From Myxococcota bacterium (lineage in GTDB: Bacteria; Myxococcota_A; UBA9160; UBA4427), in NCBI GenBank assembly GCA_965250285.1, contig OZ252299.1, forward strand, positions 3,680,001-3,744,000: a DNA stretch of 64,000 bases, read 5' to 3'. This document shows positions 23,654-35,372 of this stretch, piece after piece. A model generated the notes under the pieces. That model worked only from the letters and a program-made list of their open reading frames with translations, was not told the origin of the DNA and ran no database searches. The stretch's first letter is position 1; each line of letters starts with the position of its first letter. The position numbers were made by a program, and so were the translations under genes.

Positions 23654-24011
23654 CGATCCTCGCCTCGTCGTTGCGTTCCGAAGCCGCACCGGCACCCCCT
23701 CCGACGGATCCGCGCGCTGACACACGATCTTGCCATCCCGACCGCTCGGGGTGAATGCCGAGTTCGCTCGCGCGGGCGCGAGGCAGCGGGACCCTTCGAT
23801 TCGGCATAAGAAAAGAAATCCCTCGAAAGAAATACAGATGGACAGCGCGTCGGCGACGCACGTAGGATGCGGGGGCTCCCGGGTGATCGGTTTGGGAAGG
23901 CCGGCCACCTCGTCTTGCGCGGCATGCGGCTCGCGCGCGATGGCCTCGGATAGGGCGGAGCAGTCGAGGGGCTCGTGGCATGCGCCCGAGCCCGGAGAAG
24001 GGGATATTGCG

Positions 24012-24776
24012 ATGCGATGCGGGAGACGTGCGCCCATGCGGCGGGCGCACTCGACGATCGGCACGATCGTCACGGCATGCCTGTTCGCGCTTGCGATGGC
24101 AGGCAGCGCTCAGGCACTCAAGTTCGACTACCAGATCGGCAATCAGAACAGCTCGGGTGGGATCACCGTCTCGGACGGTGGCTACACGGCGACGGCCACG
24201 GGATGGGGGGGCATTTCGAATCCCCAGAACAGCCTGAACCCGACGAATCCGGGCGCGTCCGGCGCTCAGAACCTGGGCACCAACATCGGTACGGCGCTCG
24301 GCTTCGGGCGCGGCATCGGCTGCGGCACGGTCATCAGCATCAGCCAATGTGATCTCATCGCGCCGTCCGGCGAAGATGCGCTGCTCATCGAGTTCAGTGC
24401 GCTGATGGAGATCACGCGCATCTACGGCACGCTGCTCGAGAACCCCGACGACATCTCGGCGTGGAGCTGGAACGGCAGCAGCTGGGACCTGATCGGTACG
24501 GACGACTGCCCCCCCGACGGCTTCTTCAACAACTGCGGATCGTTCGGCCAGTTCGACGGCGAGGACATCGGGCACATCGACCTCATCGGTGGCGGCACGC
24601 TCCTGCCGTCGAACCCGACCGAGTATCTGCTGATCGTCGCCGAAGACACCAGCGCGAGTGCGTTTCGGCTGGGCTTCATCGAGGCGACGGTCATCCCCGA
24701 GCCGAGCACCGCGCTGCTGATCGGGGTCGGTCTGGCGGTGGCTGCTCGCGCTCGCCGGGGCCGAAGCGGCGCCTAG
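24012..24776 (+). CDS. PEP-CTERM sorting domain protein
   Basis: Signal peptide ending AQA; tail VIPEPSTALLIGVGLAVAARARR; start could be 24036. Confidence 0.88.
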   Translation: MRCGRRAPMRRAHSTIGTIVTACLFALAMAGSAQALKFDYQIGNQNSSGGITVSDGGYTATATGWGGISNPQNSLNPTNPGASGAQNLGTNIGTALGFGRGIGCGTVISISQCDLIAPSGEDALLIEFSALMEITRIYGTLLENPDDISAWSWNGSSWDLIGTDDCPPDGFFNNCGSFGQFDGEDIGHIDLIGGGTLLPSNPTEYLLIVAEDTSASAFRLGFIEATVIPEPSTALLIGVGLAVAARARRGRSGA

Positions 24777-25163: not shown

Positions 25164-25736
25164 ATGATTCGTCCGCTCGCCCTTTCCCTCTGCTTGTTCA
25201 TGGCACTCGCCGGTCCTGCTTCGGCCATCACGATCTACGACGAATCGGTCGATGGTGACCTGTCGGGCGTGCCGTCTTCGCCGGATGCCCTGGCCGTGTC
25301 GGTCGGTGCGAATACGGTGATCGGCAGCGTCGGCCAGAACGGCGGCACCGGCGCGACCAACGGCAGCGACGCCGACTACTTCAGCATCACGATCGGCGCC
25401 GGCGAATCGCTCACGGCACTGACCATCGACAGCTACACGTTCGCCCCGTCGAACCCGGGTGCGAGCTTCATCGGCATCGTGGCGGGGGACGGCTTCAGCG
25501 GTCAGGGGGGCGGCAGCGTCGACAACTTCGTGCTCTTCAACGCGTTGTCGGCTGACGTGCTGCCCGGTCTCGCCGGTGGACCGCTCGGCGAAGGCACCTA
25601 CTCGTTCTGGGTGCAGGAAGTTTCGCCCACCGTCGTCGACTATCAGCTCACGGCGACGGTCGTGCCCGAGCCGTCGACCGCACTGTTCGTCGGCCTCGGC
25701 CTGTGCGGCCTCGCCGCCCGCGCGCGACGCGCCTGA
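25164..25736 (+). CDS. PEP-CTERM sorting domain protein
   Basis: Signal peptide ending ASA; tail VVPEPSTALFVGLGLCGLAARARR. Confidence 0.9.
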   Translation: MIRPLALSLCLFMALAGPASAITIYDESVDGDLSGVPSSPDALAVSVGANTVIGSVGQNGGTGATNGSDADYFSITIGAGESLTALTIDSYTFAPSNPGASFIGIVAGDGFSGQGGGSVDNFVLFNALSADVLPGLAGGPLGEGTYSFWVQEVSPTVVDYQLTATVVPEPSTALFVGLGLCGLAARARRA

Positions 25737-25914
25737 GCGTTGCCCGGCGCCCGGCGCGCGCGCGCCGGGCGACGATTCGGCGCCCGGGAAACGCAGCCGT
25801 CGACGCGCAGGTGACCGGCCCCTAGGATCGGGCGGATCGGGGGCTCTGGCTCGGGTCCACCCCATGCACCCCTGATCCTGCGCGGTCGGTCGCGCTCGGA
25901 AGAGGCGAGCACAC

Positions 25915-27186
25915 ATGGTGCGATTGAGCGACCTCCCGCCCGAAGAGGCCGAACACCTGCTGGCGAAGGCGTGCGACCCCTTCGACACGCAGCCGTGGGT
26001 CACCGGTGTCCCGCTTGCCGAGCGACGGGTCTCGATCGTCACCACCGCCGGACTCCACCGAGCAGATGATGCGGCCTTCGCCGCGATCGATCTCAGCTAT
26101 CGCGTGATTCCGGGTCATGCGGCGGCCACCGATCTCACGATGACCCACTCGTCGATCCATTTCGACCGGGTCGGCTTTCGGGAAGACACGAATGTGGTGT
26201 TCCCGATCGACCGACTGCACGAGCTCGAGCGCGATGGCGTCATCGGGTCGGTCGCCGACTACCACTATTCACTGATGGGCGCCGGCTGGCCCCCGGCAGC
26301 CATCGAACCCACCGCACTCGAGCTGGCGCAGCGGCTTCGGGAGGATGGGGCGGATGCGGTCTGCCTCGTCCCCGTCTGACCGAACTGCACCCGCGCGGTC
26401 GGCGCGGTCAGCCACTACCTGGAGCGTGCCGGCATCGCGACCACGGGCATCAGCCTGGTTCGAGAGAACACCGAGCGCATGCGCCTGCCGCGTTTTCTCT
26501 GGGTGCCGTTCGAGCTGGGCCGGCCGTTCGGCGCGCCTCACGAGCCCGACTTCCAGCGCCGCGTCCTGCGCGCGGCCCTCGAGCTGCTCGAACGCGACGA
26601 TGGCCCGGTCGTTCTCGAGGACTTCCCCGACGATGCCCCCGTGGCCGTCGGCGATGGAGGCGAAGCCTGGTCATGCCCGGTCTCCTTCCAGCCGACGCAC
26701 GACGACGAGACCGAGCTCGTACGCGACACGCTCGACGAGATGGCGCAGCTCGCGCCCTGGCACGAGCTCTACACCGCACGCACGGGGCGCTCGGCGCCCG
26801 CCGCCTCGGGTCTGTCTCAGGTCGACATCGTGCGCGGACTCGGTGACCTGGCCGAGGACGAGACGGCCTCGACCGTCACCACGAACCGGCCGCTCATCGA
26901 GTGGGTTCGGCTCGGCTGTGACGACGTCCGAACCTGGTACCTCGAGGCGGCCCGCGGCCGCCCCGGCACGGCCTCGTCGACCGAGCTGAACGCCTGGTTC
27001 TGGGAGCAGACGGCCTTCGCTCGTCTGATCGCCGAGGCGGCCACGACGCTGGCACGGTCGAGCGACCCGGGCGTACAGCTCTTCGCGCGGCGCTCGATGG
27101 TTCCGCGCGCGCACATGCCAGCCTTGATGCCCGGCGTCGCGCCTTCGGCCGGCGAGCTCGTCGGCCCGGACAGGACGAAGCCATGA
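25915..27186 (+). CDS. PrdB/GrdB-like selenoprotein (Sec at UGA 26377-26379) with extra C-terminal domain, 423 aa
   Basis: ORFs 25915-26379 and 26479-27186 share a frame with a single TGA between them; readthrough gives VPV-U-PNCTRAVG...LERAGIAT...PRFLWVPFELGRPFG; N-part has SIVTTAG, D.NVVFPIDRL; hairpin 11 nt after the UGA. Confidence 0.85.
26391..26407 (+). promoter_or_regulatory. Putative bacterial SECIS element
   Basis: CCGCGC-GGTCG-GCGCGG, 6-bp stem with a G-starting loop, beginning 11 nt after the UGA. Confidence 0.65.
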
Positions 27187-28028
27187 AGATCACGCCGCTC
27201 TCCCCGGTCTTCGGCGCCGACATCGAAGACGTCGATCTCGCAACCGTCGACGATGCGGGCTTCGAACCGATCTACCGAGCCTGGATCGAGCACGGCGTCC
27301 TTCGCTTCCGAGGCCAGAGCCTCGACGACGCCCAGCTCGAGGCCTTCAGCGCGCGGTTCGGCCCACTCGAACGAATCCCCTTGAAGCTGACGCCCGAGCA
27401 GGAGAAGCGGTTCGCGAGTCTGTACGTGACGCCGTTGTCGAACATCACCATCGAAGGTCGACCCATCGGCGGCCTGGGCAATGCCGAGGCCAACTGGCAC
27501 TCGGACATGACGTACCTGCCCGTCCCACCGACTGCGAGCGTGCTGCTGAGCGTCGAGATCCCGGAAGAAGGTGGGGACACGCAGTTCAGCTGTCAGCACG
27601 CCGCACTCGATCGGTTGCCCGCTGCCCTGCGAGCGCGAGTGGATGGCCTGCGCATCAAGCACGACGCGTCGCACACCAGCATCGGAGACCTCCGGGCGGG
27701 CTTCGACGCGATCAGCGATCCGCGCGCGGTGCCCGGCGCTACGCACCCCGCCGTCCGAAGCCACGAAGAGAACGGTCGCGATGCGCTCTACCTGGGCCGC
27801 CGCGAGTTCGCCTACGTCGAAGGTCTCCCGCTCCCCGAGAGCGAGACCTTGCTCGATGAGCTCTGGCAATACGCAGCCCTGCCCGAGCACACGTGGACCC
27901 AGCAGTGGCGCGTCGGCGACGTGATCGTCTGGGACAACCGTCGCGTGCTCCACCGTCGCGACGCGTTTCCGAACCACATGCGTCGGATGCTGCGGCGTTG
28001 CCAGGTGCTCGCGCGCGAGGCGCCCTGA
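27183..28028 (+). CDS. TauD/TfdA family Fe(II)/2-oxoglutarate dioxygenase
   Basis: WHSD (HxD), GGDTQF, W.VGD...WDNRRVLHRR; ATGA overlap with the selenoprotein gene. Confidence 0.9.
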   Translation: MKITPLSPVFGADIEDVDLATVDDAGFEPIYRAWIEHGVLRFRGQSLDDAQLEAFSARFGPLERIPLKLTPEQEKRFASLYVTPLSNITIEGRPIGGLGNAEANWHSDMTYLPVPPTASVLLSVEIPEEGGDTQFSCQHAALDRLPAALRARVDGLRIKHDASHTSIGDLRAGFDAISDPRAVPGATHPAVRSHEENGRDALYLGRREFAYVEGLPLPESETLLDELWQYAALPEHTWTQQWRVGDVIVWDNRRVLHRRDAFPNHMRRMLRRCQVLAREAP

Positions 28029-28054
28029 CGGCCCGGTTGCGGCAGAATCTCAGC

Positions 28055-30052
28055 ATGTATGATTCTCACTCGCCGTCCGATGAAGGCGCGCGCGAGCGGT
28101 CGCCCTTCGAGCATTTTGCAGCGAGCGCCGCCTTCGTCCTGGTCGCGTTCGCGCTCGGCGCATGCGCAAGACCGGCCGACCCGGCCTTCGACGCCAGCGT
28201 GAGCGGCGCAGAAGCGCGACGGGCTCGATCGGCGCCGACGACTCCCGAGACGCGCGGGGTCGACGTGCTCGCCACGGCGGCCTTCGAAGAAGGCGTGCCC
28301 GGGCGCACCTTCCCGGTCGAGGTGACCGTCGCCGGCGGCGATCACGGCGAGCTGCTCTTCGAGTTCAACGAAACGCACTCACCCGGATCGGGCGCGATGT
28401 GGCGCGCCTCGGAGCTCTCGGCCGCGGTCCAGGCAATGCTCGCGACGAGCGTGCCCCCCGAAGGCCTCGAGATCACGTACTCGGTCGAGGGCGACCTCGA
28501 TGGTCCGAGCGCCGGGGCGCTGCTGACGATCGGCCTCATGGCGGCGATGCAGGGGCACGCCCTGCGCCCCGACGTCACGATGACGGGCACGATCAACCCC
28601 GACGGGTCGATCGGTGCCGTCTCGAAGATCCCCGAGAAGGTGGTCGGTGCGGGCAACGAGGGCATGAAGCTCGTGCTGATCCCGGTGGGCACGCGCCGCG
28701 GCCTGGATGGCCAGGGCCCCGACGTCGTCGAGGTGGGGCGTCGAGTCGGTGTCGAGGTGCGCGAGGTCGCCGACATCTACGAGGCCTATGAAGCCATGAC
28801 CGGGGTCGCATTCGTCGGTGCGGGCGAGGCCGACGACGTACCGACGTATGGCGGCGCGTTCGCTCGGCGCTTCGACGAGAAGTCGGCCGAGTGGCGTGCG
28901 CGCTTCGAGCGCAACGAGGTGGCGCTCATCGAGATCGACCCGAAGCTGCTCGCGCGATTCGGCTCGTTCGCGGCGATGGAGCGCGCCCAGGCCGAGCTGA
29001 AGGCCGCGAACCTGCTTCGCGCCGCCGGCCACCACTCGGCGGCCTACAACACGACGGTGACTGCGACGCGCACGATTGCGGCCGCGCGCCTCGTCCCCGA
29101 GGCCCTCGAGCGGCTCGACGAAAGCGGCGCGGCCTCGGTCGAGGCGTGGCTCGAGCGCGGCGGACACGTCGAGCAGGATCTGATCGCAACGCTCACGCGC
29201 ATTCAGCAGGTCGAGCCACGGACCTTCAACGACCTGACCGCGCTTGCGATCATCTACGCAACCCTGCTCGAGGGCTTCTCGCTCGAGCGGAGCGCGGGGC
29301 GGCTGTTCGACCGCGCGCGCGAGCCCGGCCGCTCCGAGGCCGAAGTCGAAGCCCTGCTCGCCGAAGCGGTTCGTCGCGAGGTCGAGGCGGCGGCCTTCAG
29401 CCTCTTCGCGATCGACTACCTCGACTTTCGAGCGGCGCTCGGCGACGGCGGCCGCGCGGTCGAGGTCGACCTCGATCGGGTCGCCGACCTCCTGCTCCAG
29501 GCGGCCGACGCGAACCTGATGCTCTTCGAGTCGATCACGCTCGCGACCCTGGCCCAGGCGAGCGGCCTGCCGCTCGAAGTCATGCGGAAGCGCTTCGAGT
29601 CGCAGTCGCGAACGTACCGCGAGGTCATGGCCGTCGAGGCGTTCCGCTCGCGCATCGATCCTCACATCAGCGATCCGCGACACCGGGCGCTCGCGCGCGT
29701 CGGCCTCGACCTCTGGCGCTACGTCGGCGCCGCCGAGCTGCTTGCCACGCACTACTCGCTGTCGGTGCGGGTCGACCCCGAGACGCTCGCCGTCGAAGCG
29801 TTCGCGGTGACGCCTCCCCTGGTTGCGATGTTCGAGAGCTCACAGAAGCAGATTCACCGCGCGCTCTACGCCATCGACGAGCTCGACATCGATCCGCAGC
29901 TGGTGCTCGCGATCAACGAGGTCGGCATGGAGGCAGCTCGAAGCGCCGCGGCCCTCGGCAACGGCCCGATGATGATGCGCAGTCTGCGGGCGATGTGGAT
30001 CACGCGCGTGATCACCGAGGCCTTCCTGCTGGGTCTCGAACCCGACACCTGA
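28055..30052 (+). CDS. S16 (Lon proteolytic domain) serine protease without AAA+ module, probable lipoprotein
   Basis: DGPSAG Ser with Lys 43 residues later (IPEK), MTGTINPDGSIG; hydrophobic segment ending LGAC; long helical C-terminal region. Confidence 0.78.
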   Translation: MYDSHSPSDEGARERSPFEHFAASAAFVLVAFALGACARPADPAFDASVSGAEARRARSAPTTPETRGVDVLATAAFEEGVPGRTFPVEVTVAGGDHGELLFEFNETHSPGSGAMWRASELSAAVQAMLATSVPPEGLEITYSVEGDLDGPSAGALLTIGLMAAMQGHALRPDVTMTGTINPDGSIGAVSKIPEKVVGAGNEGMKLVLIPVGTRRGLDGQGPDVVEVGRRVGVEVREVADIYEAYEAMTGVAFVGAGEADDVPTYGGAFARRFDEKSAEWRARFERNEVALIEIDPKLLARFGSFAAMERAQAELKAANLLRAAGHHSAAYNTTVTATRTIAAARLVPEALERLDESGAASVEAWLERGGHVEQDLIATLTRIQQVEPRTFNDLTALAIIYATLLEGFSLERSAGRLFDRAREPGRSEAEVEALLAEAVRREVEAAAFSLFAIDYLDFRAALGDGGRAVEVDLDRVADLLLQAADANLMLFESITLATLAQASGLPLEVMRKRFESQSRTYREVMAVEAFRSRIDPHISDPRHRALARVGLDLWRYVGAAELLATHYSLSVRVDPETLAVEAFAVTPPLVAMFESSQKQIHRALYAIDELDIDPQLVLAINEVGMEAARSAAALGNGPMMMRSLRAMWITRVITEAFLLGLEPDT

Positions 30053-33206: not shown

Positions 33207-33821
33207 ATGAAGATGACCTTACGGCCCCCCCGCCTTCGCGCCCTCGCCTATTCGGCACTCGTCTGCTTGCTGCCTGCGTGCACGCTGTTCTCTGGCGGCG
33301 CGCCGCCGCCGGAACCCGTCGTTGAGCCACTGCCGCCGCCGACGCGTGTCGTTTGTGCCGAGCCCGTCCCGCCCGCGGTGAAGGAGACCGGCCCTCTGAC
33401 GATCGGTGCCACCGAGCGCGTGATCCTCCAACCAGAGGGGATCGCGTTCGAGGCGCGCATCGACACGGGGGCGGAGACCTCTTCGATGGGTGCGGCCAAC
33501 ATCACCGAGTTCGAACGCGACGGGAAGACCTGGGTGAGCTTCGATGTGACCGGTCAGGGCGGCACGACCGAAGAGATCAAGCGACCCGTCGTGCGCTTCG
33601 CCCGGATCAAGGTGCATCGCGGTGAGCCCGACCGCCGTCCGGTCGTCAAGCTTCGCGTGATGCTCGGCCCGCTGGAAGAGATGCGTGAGTTCACGCTCGC
33701 CGATCGTTCCCAGTACGAGTATCCGGTGCTGATCGGGCGCAACTTCATCCGCGACAACGCCCTGGTGGACGTCAGTCGCGAGAACACGCAGCGCCCCGCT
33801 CGCCGCAGCGAGAGCCGGTAG
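33207..33821 (+). CDS. Retropepsin-like aspartic peptidase (so-called ATP-dependent zinc protease / RimB-like), lipoprotein
   Basis: Lipobox-like LPAC; ARIDTGAETSS, RRPVV, EFTLADRS...YPVLIGRNF. Confidence 0.85.
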   Translation: MKMTLRPPRLRALAYSALVCLLPACTLFSGGAPPPEPVVEPLPPPTRVVCAEPVPPAVKETGPLTIGATERVILQPEGIAFEARIDTGAETSSMGAANITEFERDGKTWVSFDVTGQGGTTEEIKRPVVRFARIKVHRGEPDRRPVVKLRVMLGPLEEMREFTLADRSQYEYPVLIGRNFIRDNALVDVSRENTQRPARRSESR

Positions 33822-33827
33822 CACACG

Positions 33828-35372
33828 GTGTCCCCCCGCCTTCAGCTCTCGGTGGTGATCGCGCTGTTGGTGGCGCTCGGTTCGGGGCTCGCGATCTACA
33901 AGAGCCGCGTGCTGGGGTTTCCCTTCGTCCCGGGTGAGGCGACCCGTGTCTTCGTGGCCGAGGCGAAGATCGAGTTCGAGGCGGAGGGGAAGCCCGTCCT
34001 GGTCTCGTTCGCGCTGCCCGAAGACACGCGCACGCTTCGCGTCACCGACGCGAACTTTGCATCGCCCGGCTACGGCTTCTTGCGACAGAAGATCTCGGGT
34101 GACAGCCGCGGCGTGTGGAGCAAGCGCGAAGCCAGCGGCTCGCAGACGCTCTACTACCAGGCGCACGTCTTTGCGTCGCCCGGCAACCCGCCAGCCGACG
34201 ACGAAGAGGCGCCGCCGACGCCAGAGCCGCCCTTCTTCGAAGAGCCGCAGAAGACGGCCGCGCGCGCCGTCGTCGATGCCGCGTACAACCGGTCGGCCTC
34301 ACCCGAGACGCTCGCCGGCGATCTCATGCGTCGGCTCAACGAAGCGGCGCCTTCTCAGAACGTCGAGCTGCTCGTGGGCGACGTCGAGACGGCGGAGCAG
34401 CAGGTCGCGCTCGAGGTCAAGCTGCTCGCCCTGGCCGAGATCTCGGCGCGGGTCGTCCGCGGGATCCAGCTCGAAGACGGCCGCCGACGCCAGAAGCTCG
34501 TCGAGTGGCTCGAGATCTGGAACGGCGACGAGTGGGTCCCCGTCGACCCCGAGACGGGTCAGCTCGGCTTTCCGCCGAGCTTCCTGCCCTGGCAGCGGGG
34601 CGGAGAGTCGTTGCTCGACGTCACCGGTGGCCACGGATCGAGCGTCCGCTTCTCGACCCTCTCCGAGCTGCGGCCCGCGCGTGCGACGGCGGTCTCGATC
34701 GGCGCGAGAGAGCACGCCGCGCTCGTCGACTTCTCGATCTACAGCCTCCCGATCGAAGACCAGAACGCCTTCAAGCTGCTCCTCCTCGTGCCCATGGGCG
34801 CCCTGGTGGTCGTCGTCATGCGTAACCTGATCGGCGTGCGGACGAGCGGGACGTTCATGCCGATCCTCATCGCCCTGGCCTTCATTCAGACGACGCTGGT
34901 CACGGGCCTCGTGCTCTTCGTGTTGATCGTGTCGATCGGCCTGCTGATCCGCGCGTATCTCTCGCGCCTCGACCTACTACTCGTGCCGCGCATCGCGGCC
35001 ATCGTGATCGTCGTGATCCTGCTCTTCGGTGCGTTCGCCATCGTGAGCCACAAGCTCCAGCTCGAGGGCGGCCTGCGCGTGACCTTCTTCCCGATGATCA
35101 TCATGGCGTGGACGATCGAGCGCATGAGCGTGCTCTGGGACGAGGACGGCCCGGTCGAGGTGCTGGTGCAGGGGTCGGGCAGCCTGGTCGTGGCGACGCT
35201 CGCCTACCTGGTCATGGTGAACCGCTACGTCGCACACCTCACCTATTCGTTCCCCGAGCTGCTCCTGGTGGTCCTGGCGCTGATCCTCGCGATCGGCCAG
35301 TACACGGGCTACCGGCTCACCGAGCTGCGGCGCTTCGAGCCCCTCGTGCGCGAGGGCGACTCGCCGTCATGA
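33828..35372 (+). CDS. Inactive transglutaminase family protein with 7TM C-terminal domain
   Basis: L.DGRRRQ, DFSIYSLP, G..TSGTFMPILIA, LLLVPR, FFPMIIMAWTIER, GQYTGYRLTEL.RF. Confidence 0.88.
   Translation: MSPRLQLSVVIALLVALGSGLAIYKSRVLGFPFVPGEATRVFVAEAKIEFEAEGKPVLVSFALPEDTRTLRVTDANFASPGYGFLRQKISGDSRGVWSKREASGSQTLYYQAHVFASPGNPPADDEEAPPTPEPPFFEEPQKTAARAVVDAAYNRSASPETLAGDLMRRLNEAAPSQNVELLVGDVETAEQQVALEVKLLALAEISARVVRGIQLEDGRRRQKLVEWLEIWNGDEWVPVDPETGQLGFPPSFLPWQRGGESLLDVTGGHGSSVRFSTLSELRPARATAVSIGAREHAALVDFSIYSLPIEDQNAFKLLLLVPMGALVVVVMRNLIGVRTSGTFMPILIALAFIQTTLVTGLVLFVLIVSIGLLIRAYLSRLDLLLVPRIAAIVIVVILLFGAFAIVSHKLQLEGGLRVTFFPMIIMAWTIERMSVLWDEDGPVEVLVQGSGSLVVATLAYLVMVNRYVAHLTYSFPELLLVVLALILAIGQYTGYRLTELRRFEPLVREGDSPS

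Follow-up and report, generated by a model that had tools for sequence, protein, structure and literature searches.

An in-frame UGA codon in the window (the whole 64,000-nucleotide stretch of Myxococcota DNA analysed here, to which all window positions refer) almost certainly encodes selenocysteine (Sec), as predicted from the sequence. The 423-aa product resembles PrdB in its core, carries a predicted helical C-terminal domain and a third conserved redox residue, and is encoded directly upstream of a TauD/TfdA-family dioxygenase. We propose, tentatively, that this long form of the PrdB-like family acts as a stand-alone selenol/dithiol enzyme.

A split reading frame encodes a 423-aa protein

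Translation gave a single frame from ATG 25915 to TGA 27184-27186, the sole internal stop being TGA 26377-26379. The program-made ORF list splits this frame into two ORFs, 25915-26379 (154 aa) and 26479-27186 (235 aa). An earlier note on this DNA had read the two as one frame parted only by that TGA; the frame check agrees, and the C-terminal motifs that it quoted are all found in the readthrough product, ...DAVCLVPV-U155-PN-C158-TRAVGAVSHYLE.... GC3 was high on both sides of the UGA (0.80 before it, 0.91 just after it and 0.88 in the C-terminal part). The UGA codon was covered without a differing letter by one contig in each of three runs, all from one study that is possibly the source. No sigma-70-like promoter was detected, and the one terminator-like match was at chance level. 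The positions of the main features are listed in Table 1.

Table 1. Features of the selenoprotein gene and the adjoining dioxygenase gene
Feature	Window position	Strand	Evidence
Shine-Dalgarno-like AAGAGG, 9 nt 5' of ATG	25900..25905	+	sequence; function presumed
Long-form PrdB-like selenoprotein gene, 423 aa with UGA as predicted Sec codon	25915..27186	+	frame, profiles, homologues, TGA conservation
PrdB/GrdB-like alpha/beta domain (about residues 32-240)	26008..26634	+	TIGR04483 E 6.6e-31, PF07355 above cut-off, model
UGA, predicted Sec155 of U-P-N-C motif	26377..26379	+	TGA in 106/107 alignments; Cys in 30/31 full-length database proteins
Cys158, second residue of UxxC	26386..26388	+	Cys in 122/122
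Putative bacterial SECIS hairpin: stem CCGCGC/GCGCGG, loop GGUCG 17 nt after UGA, -12.6 kcal/mol	26391..26407	+	covariation, synonymous constraint, codon-shuffle null, local fold
Cys254 in C-P motif of low-confidence linker, predicted resolving cysteine	26674..26676	+	conservation; role presumed
All-helical C-terminal domain (about residues 267-404)	26713..27126	+	conservation, model pLDDT 92.8
TauD/TfdA-family Fe(II)/2-oxoglutarate dioxygenase	27183..28028	+	PF02668 E 2.5e-63; nearest solved chains TfdA-like, RdpA

Two PEP-CTERM proteins are encoded directly upstream on the same strand (23730-24776 and 25164-25736); they were not present in the related loci examined. Downstream of tauD lies an ORF with a Lon S16 protease domain (27893-30052), whose true start is probably later than 27893. 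Farther along, 33207-35372 holds a pair encoding an RloA-like retropepsin and an RloB-like 7TM inactive transglutaminase.

The UGA is conserved and followed by a covarying hairpin

Homologous loci were gathered from genomes (17 loci), from metagenomes (the best 79 of 553 matches) and from six regions of relatives. With the window these make 103 loci, some of them near-duplicates, and 102 span position 155. TGA occupied this position in 106 of 107 homologous alignments (102 loci) and TAA or TAG in none; the sole non-TGA alignment came from an N-gapped scaffold. A chance stop is therefore ruled out. Those records that had names carried Myxococcota, Acidobacteriota and Alpha-, Gamma- and Deltaproteobacteria labels. 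Cys was aligned to Sec155 in 30 of the 31 full-length database homologues. The host genome, G000, is a single contig of 6.25 Mb that is 95% complete; it contains selA, selB and selD above cut-offs, and a tRNA-Sec with a TCA anticodon (selC) is present.

The bacterial SECIS model, as given in the available part of its source, has a 3-9 nt loop located 16-37 nt after the UGA, G in the first two loop positions, a stem of 4-16 bp and an MFE of -7.5 or below (PMC13188914). The window hairpin satisfies the model in that form (5-nt loop GGUCG at 17 nt, 6 bp, -12.6 kcal/mol). Across 78 non-redundant Sec genes, the stem lies at +12..+17 and +23..+28 after the UGA, and the loop G-U at +19/+20 was found in 77. 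The stem covaries: pair 12-28 is GC in 48 genes, CG in 16 and TA in 3, and pair 13-27 is CG in 60 and TA in 10. The three most constrained of 127 four-fold sites were those of codons 163, 160 and 161, all in or beside the stem. Observed pairing was 5.54 of 6, compared with 3.73 +/- 0.10 (maximum 4.08) in 2000 synonymous-codon shuffles, a contrast that is inflated by kinship among the genes. The region 3' of the UGA folded no better than shuffles (z -0.89, -0.70 and +0.68); the SECIS call thus rests on conservation, not on stability.

Taken alone, decoding of the UGA as Sec is a prediction in which we have very high confidence. The earlier note had asked for homologues with Cys at the UGA and for selA, selB, selC and selD. 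Full-length Cys forms were found and all four genes are present in G000, and its proposal of a 423-aa selenoenzyme with an additional domain accords with the Sec machinery, the Cys homologues, the conserved UGA and the SECIS. A true stop, which would leave two separate genes or a pseudogene, has almost no probability: gene callers do split the gene, most database entries are its two halves and the region 3' of the UGA folds like shuffles (z -0.7 to -0.9), but such a stop would cut the PrdB-like domain midway, the codon is always TGA and never TAA or TAG, uninterrupted Cys homologues exist, the SECIS covaries and the Sec machinery is complete.

Several related genes have their own peculiarities. 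Two short PrdB-like paralogues in G000 (L004, G000:C1:120935-121537; L005, G000:C1:3939144-3939725) have TGA at the aligned site (UPDC and UPVC) and a SECIS-like hairpin; the C-domain and C254 are absent from both. Two UGSC-family genes of G000:C1 (2261707-2262138 and 3019995-3020429) contain an in-frame TGA, with hairpins at the same spacing. L017, L048, L043, L055 and L085 each carry a tandem pair of divergent long-form Sec genes. At L022, about 1.4 kb of other sequence interrupts the long gene a few codons past the UGA.

The core is PrdB/GrdB-like and no reductase partners were found in the genome

TIGR04483 (PrdB) matched residues 32-226 with 107.6 bits against an equivalog cut-off of 300, and TIGR01918 matched residues 79-226 (model positions 268-421 of 431) with 60.7 bits against 65.45. 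PF07355 was passed (45 bits; gathering threshold 22) with the U155-x-x-C158 motif. Many non-Cys residues are invariant (H78, S80, D84, R85, D91 and N93). An AlphaFold model (pLDDT 80) contained an alpha/beta domain, a low-confidence linker (residues 245-250 and 259-265) and a helical domain. Structure searches with the N-terminal domain returned generic LacI/SDR-type matches only (Z 7-9), Foldseek returned nothing at E <= 0.001 with either this model or the separate C-domain model, and the best E of a PDB sequence search with the full protein was 0.44.

The protein shares with clostridial D-proline reductase PrdB (TIGR04483) the alpha/beta domain over residues 32-226 and the aligned Sec of UxxC. 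However, it scores far below the equivalog cut-off, has 423 residues where the PrdB model has 238 positions, and comes from a host with haem-copper oxidases in which no PrdA pyruvoyl proprotein was detected. In GrdB/GrdF/GrdH (TIGR01918, PF07355) and FarB of fluoroacetate reduction (PMC10838667) the likeness is to the C-terminal, Sec-bearing part of GrdB, matched by residues 79-226. Unlike GrdB, the window protein has no 270-residue N-terminal part and has a C-terminal domain of its own; its motif is UxxC, not UxxCxxC, and GrdE and GrdA were not found in the host.

G000 yielded no match to PF09338 (PrdA/GrdE) or PF04723 (GrdA), and 14 control genomes likewise gave neither. Among 301 genomes of the phylum, PrdB-like genes occurred in 51 and PF09338 in a single genome, G248. 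GrdA was detected in one of five genomes, again G248; the other four were long-form genomes including G000. On one contig of G248 (L119, G248:C182) are a GrdE/PrdA-family gene, a GrdB-like gene and a TGA-containing GrdA gene. This contig holds a full glycine-reductase-type cluster, and the genome belongs to the same order.

Because its PrdB score lies so far under the threshold and no partner subunit was detected, the window protein is, as judged from sequence, a PrdB-like protein that does not belong to a proline or glycine reductase; the profile matches thereby bear out the PrdB/GrdB-like core named in the earlier note and refine it. It is very improbable that it serves a true D-proline, glycine, sarcosine or betaine reductase as its PrdB or GrdB subunit. 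TIGR04483 and TIGR01918 are its best HMM matches, and databases name the Cys homologues 'D-proline reductase PrdB' or 'selenoprotein B family', but 108 bits stand against 300 for PrdB and 60.7 against 65.45 for TIGR01918, and the two partner families missed in the 95%-complete G000 were both detected in the control G248. G000 encodes three haem-copper oxidase subunits I and, in its 6.25 Mb, 15 (14+1) TauD-like genes; the host therefore likely respires oxygen.

A helical C-terminal domain and a third cysteine define the long form

The roughly 180 residues that had been noticed beyond the PrdB-like core lie at about residues 245-423, and the structure prediction suggested for them yielded a helical domain. 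Modelled alone from 83 sequences, it had seven helices and a pLDDT of 92.8. E275, W282 and P350 are invariant, and D337, Y342, E344, W361, W363 and T366 nearly so. No Pfam family was common to more than 2 of the 83 members. Searches of solved structures gave a best Foldseek E of 2.0 and a best VIA match of Z 5.3 (rmsd 6.0 Å over 106 residues), and a PDB sequence search with the C-domain profile reached E 0.28 at best. Weak structural matches of this kind (Z <= 5.3) do not prove a new fold. Kinship of the C-domain with the GrdE/PrdA-family protein of G248 was considered and rejected (hhalign probability 0.1). A C-domain query matched 10 of the 301 phylum genomes, seven of them at E <= 1e-9.

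C254 was found in all 86 non-redundant sequences and in 119 of 122 in a wider set, and sits in a low-confidence region of the predicted model. The long form thus has three conserved redox residues (U155, C158 and C254). A further Cys occurs at position 160 in 15 of the 86 sequences.

A profile of the long family retrieved 556 representatives (50% clustering, E <= 1e-30), which among the 150 listed were mostly split halves. Cys forms filed as 'glycine/sarcosine/betaine reductase selenoprotein B family protein' (NCBI/JGI) have the same two-domain layout over their full length, with about 40-45% identity. Examples are WP_293750912 of Limnohabitans, proteins of Luminiphilus MAGs and the TauD fusion MGF1454876; they differ in having Cys for Sec, their names are automatic, and three are fused to TauD. 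A distant all-Cys long-form clade (P0129, P0130, P0132, P0136, P0137, P0141, P0149, P0150, P0152, P0153 and P0238) keeps the linker Cys; one of its members is labelled Solirubrobacterales. In P0273 (417 aa) the long-form half that follows the UGA is fused to a Cys-rich DUF3795 domain, the rest of its cluster being shorter.

TauD-family genes adjoin or are fused to some long forms

The start of the dioxygenase gene overlaps the stop of the selenoprotein gene (ATGA), and the metal triad H106-x-D108...H257 is present. The nearest solved relatives, TfdA-like enzymes and RdpA, are remote (best E 4.5e-40) and cannot serve to identify the substrate. TfdA-like and RdpA enzymes hydroxylate the alpha carbon of ether-linked alpha-carboxylates. 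The clade of the window TauD does not have the H-P motif present in several paralogues, whose His may correspond to His70 of E. coli TauD. His70 of that enzyme binds the sulfonate, and His70 and Arg270 are its anion-binding residues in the available text of PMC12951627.

Linkage was scored at 73 loci whose sequence extends at least 500 nt past the long gene, eight near-duplicates having been dropped; these loci are related, so that the counts are not independent. A TauD gene was directly downstream on the same strand in 14, including the window, and within 1.5 kb in 16; 59 of the 73 had no adjoining TauD. For comparison, the entire genome of G000 has 15 TauD-like genes. Three Cys forms (708-724 aa), one labelled Alphaproteobacteria, are fused in frame to a TauD of the window type. 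The window TauD clade has 11 members (support 0.999), all linked or fused, nine of which had been fetched by way of the link itself. Three TauD lineages occur beside the long gene: the window clade, that of L050 from another subclade, and an FrbJ-like type that makes up 8 of the 14 directly adjoining loci. Recruitment of such unrelated types may argue against one specific pathway.

An unbiased TauD search of the 301 genomes gave four matches at E <= 1e-70, of which two had >55% identity, both directly behind a long gene. In the order of G301, TauD was found at E <= 1e-85 in 0 of 81 genomes, a search run without a positive control, and a search of another order gave 12 of 91 genomes. Around more distant TauDs (34-53% identity), the long gene lay within 1.5 kb in none of 19 loci.

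Long-form genes of other clades have different neighbours

Neighbour scans covered 107 immediate neighbours and 105 of 203 further candidates. Long-form genes of other clades adjoined genes for TetR (11 loci), sigma-factor/NrsF, ArsS, arsenosugar enzymes, MerA, GST and UGSC. Further neighbours were selB, selD, a choline-sulfatase-like gene and TauC. Genes for ArsS radical SAM, arsenosugar glycosyltransferase, MerA or sigma-factor/NrsF are found close to the long gene at L062, L070, L080, L092, L052 and L065.

Proposed function

By analogy with characterised relatives, the long form may be a stand-alone selenol/dithiol enzyme of aerobic breakdown of small hetero-substituted carboxylates, in a route shared with the adjoining dioxygenase. 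As a whole this mechanism is a tentative choice, to which we give somewhat less than an even chance. Glycine and proline reductases are described in the accessible text of PMC10298544 as using a selenolate that attacks the alpha carbon, after which a thiol cleaves the selenoether. By extension from GrdB/PrdB chemistry, the Sec155 selenolate would attack an X-CH(R)-COO- substrate at its alpha carbon and expel a leaving group. If that leaving group were built in (of onium, halide or thioether type), pyruvoyl activation would not be needed. A GrdB-like selenoprotein has been proposed to displace fluoride from fluoroacetate, as given in the available part of PMC10838667; that system, as described there, retains a GrdE-like partner and GrdA, a point against the analogy. 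The conservation of C158 and a mobile C254 suggests that they would resolve the selenoether or selenenyl-sulfide, and that of the C-domain suggests that it could close the active site and replace the missing partner subunits. In the most speculative step, the dioxygenase would take substrates of the same class, or else the carboxyalkyl product, and yield glyoxylate or a 2-oxo acid. The TauD fusion would make sense if both enzymes acted on one class of X-CH(R)-COO- substrates.

A close rival, a serious possibility though also a doubtful one, is a general thiol/selenol redox or electrophile-detoxifying enzyme acting on peroxide, disulfide, oxidised thiol or metalloid. C254 would then resolve as in peroxiredoxins or MsrA; beside TauD, the enzyme would maintain the iron centre or cysteines in their reduced state or remove the by-products that uncoupled turnover creates. 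The three conserved redox residues and the recruitment of three unrelated TauD lineages favour such a role, and so do the sigma-factor/NrsF, MerA, ArsS, arsenosugar, GST, UGSC, selB and selD neighbours of other clades; the TetR, sigma-factor/NrsF, ArsS, arsenosugar, MerA, GST, selB and selD neighbours fit general redox service equally well. Most marine UxxC selenoproteins are also listed as thiol-redox proteins in Table 3 of PMC1088965, as far as that source was available. However, the core is PrdB/GrdB-like and not thioredoxin-like, and characterised members cleave C-N bonds according to the available text of PMC10298544. The invariant H78, S80, D84, R85, D91 and N93 suggest a defined pocket for a small substrate, and one TauD clade tracks the gene tightly, fusions included.

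It is unlikely that the selenoprotein is real and its TauD neighbour incidental, the two sharing no reaction and having been brought together by one ancestral juxtaposition or by co-regulation in TauD-rich genomes. The TauD-linked genes do all group together in the tree, within a clade of 51 of 122 sequences whose FastTree support is 0.925; when the set was thinned (19 of 65), SH-aLRT was only 49.9. TauD paralogues are numerous in some hosts (14+1 in G000, 21 in G302), and the link is absent from most loci. Against this stand the three different TauD lineages, the overlapping start and stop codons and the three in-frame fusions.

Earlier descriptions and significance

The family has been listed since 2005-2008. 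The Sargasso Sea paper reports 42 'PrdB' selenoproteins in its available part (PMC1088965), and the GOS paper, likewise, a 'PrdB' family of 235 Sec and 110 Cys sequences (PMC2398784). Long-form Sec sequences were already in the 2008 GOS dataset: in the part of Dataset S1 after the '#Proline reductase' heading, a motif search judged by eye found PVUPNC and the C-P-V-S-F linker plus helical tail, with 21 and 15 occurrences. In the available passages of both papers, the marine 'Proline reductase PrdB' UxxC family has the same motif and fold class as the window protein. It is treated there as a proline reductase, long and short forms are not divided, and the C-domain, C254, the missing partners and TauD go unmentioned. 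The GOS passages on fusions that were available do not name PrdB (PMC2398784), and the term 'TauD' is absent from the 2026 review. Nothing on the long-form subfamily was found in the openly accessible literature searched, the only relevant items listed being two reviews; a description may nonetheless stand in the supplementary files of the Sargasso paper or of the 2022 and 2026 reviews. Within that scope, the two-domain anatomy with a third Cys (C254), the helical domain that could not be assigned and the recurrent adjacency or fusion to TauD were not found in print. Since partners occurred in one of the 301 phylum genomes and PrdB-like genes in 51, the name 'PrdB' is probably wrong for the family.

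The Sec call by itself is ordinary. 'PrdB' is, however, among the most abundant selenoprotein families in ocean metagenomes (235 sequences in GOS), and the TauD fusions together with natural Cys forms offer a first concrete handle on its reaction and make the function testable. Since a Cys-form fusion needs no Sec machinery, a single such protein could be produced in E. coli and screened for substrates. The C-domain is confidently modelled and is without a family or a clear solved relative. In the broadest form of our proposal, which we consider distinctly improbable, long forms would be widespread, mislabelled, self-sufficient selenoenzymes that bring Stickland-type C-X cleavage to aerobes; the helical domain and third Cys would replace the pyruvoyl and GrdA partners, and the fused or adjoining Fe/2-oxoglutarate dioxygenase would oxidatively remove the carboxyalkyl group. 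If this were true, marine and soil microbes would possess a route, so far undescribed, for the catabolism of onium, thioether or organo-metalloid carboxylates.
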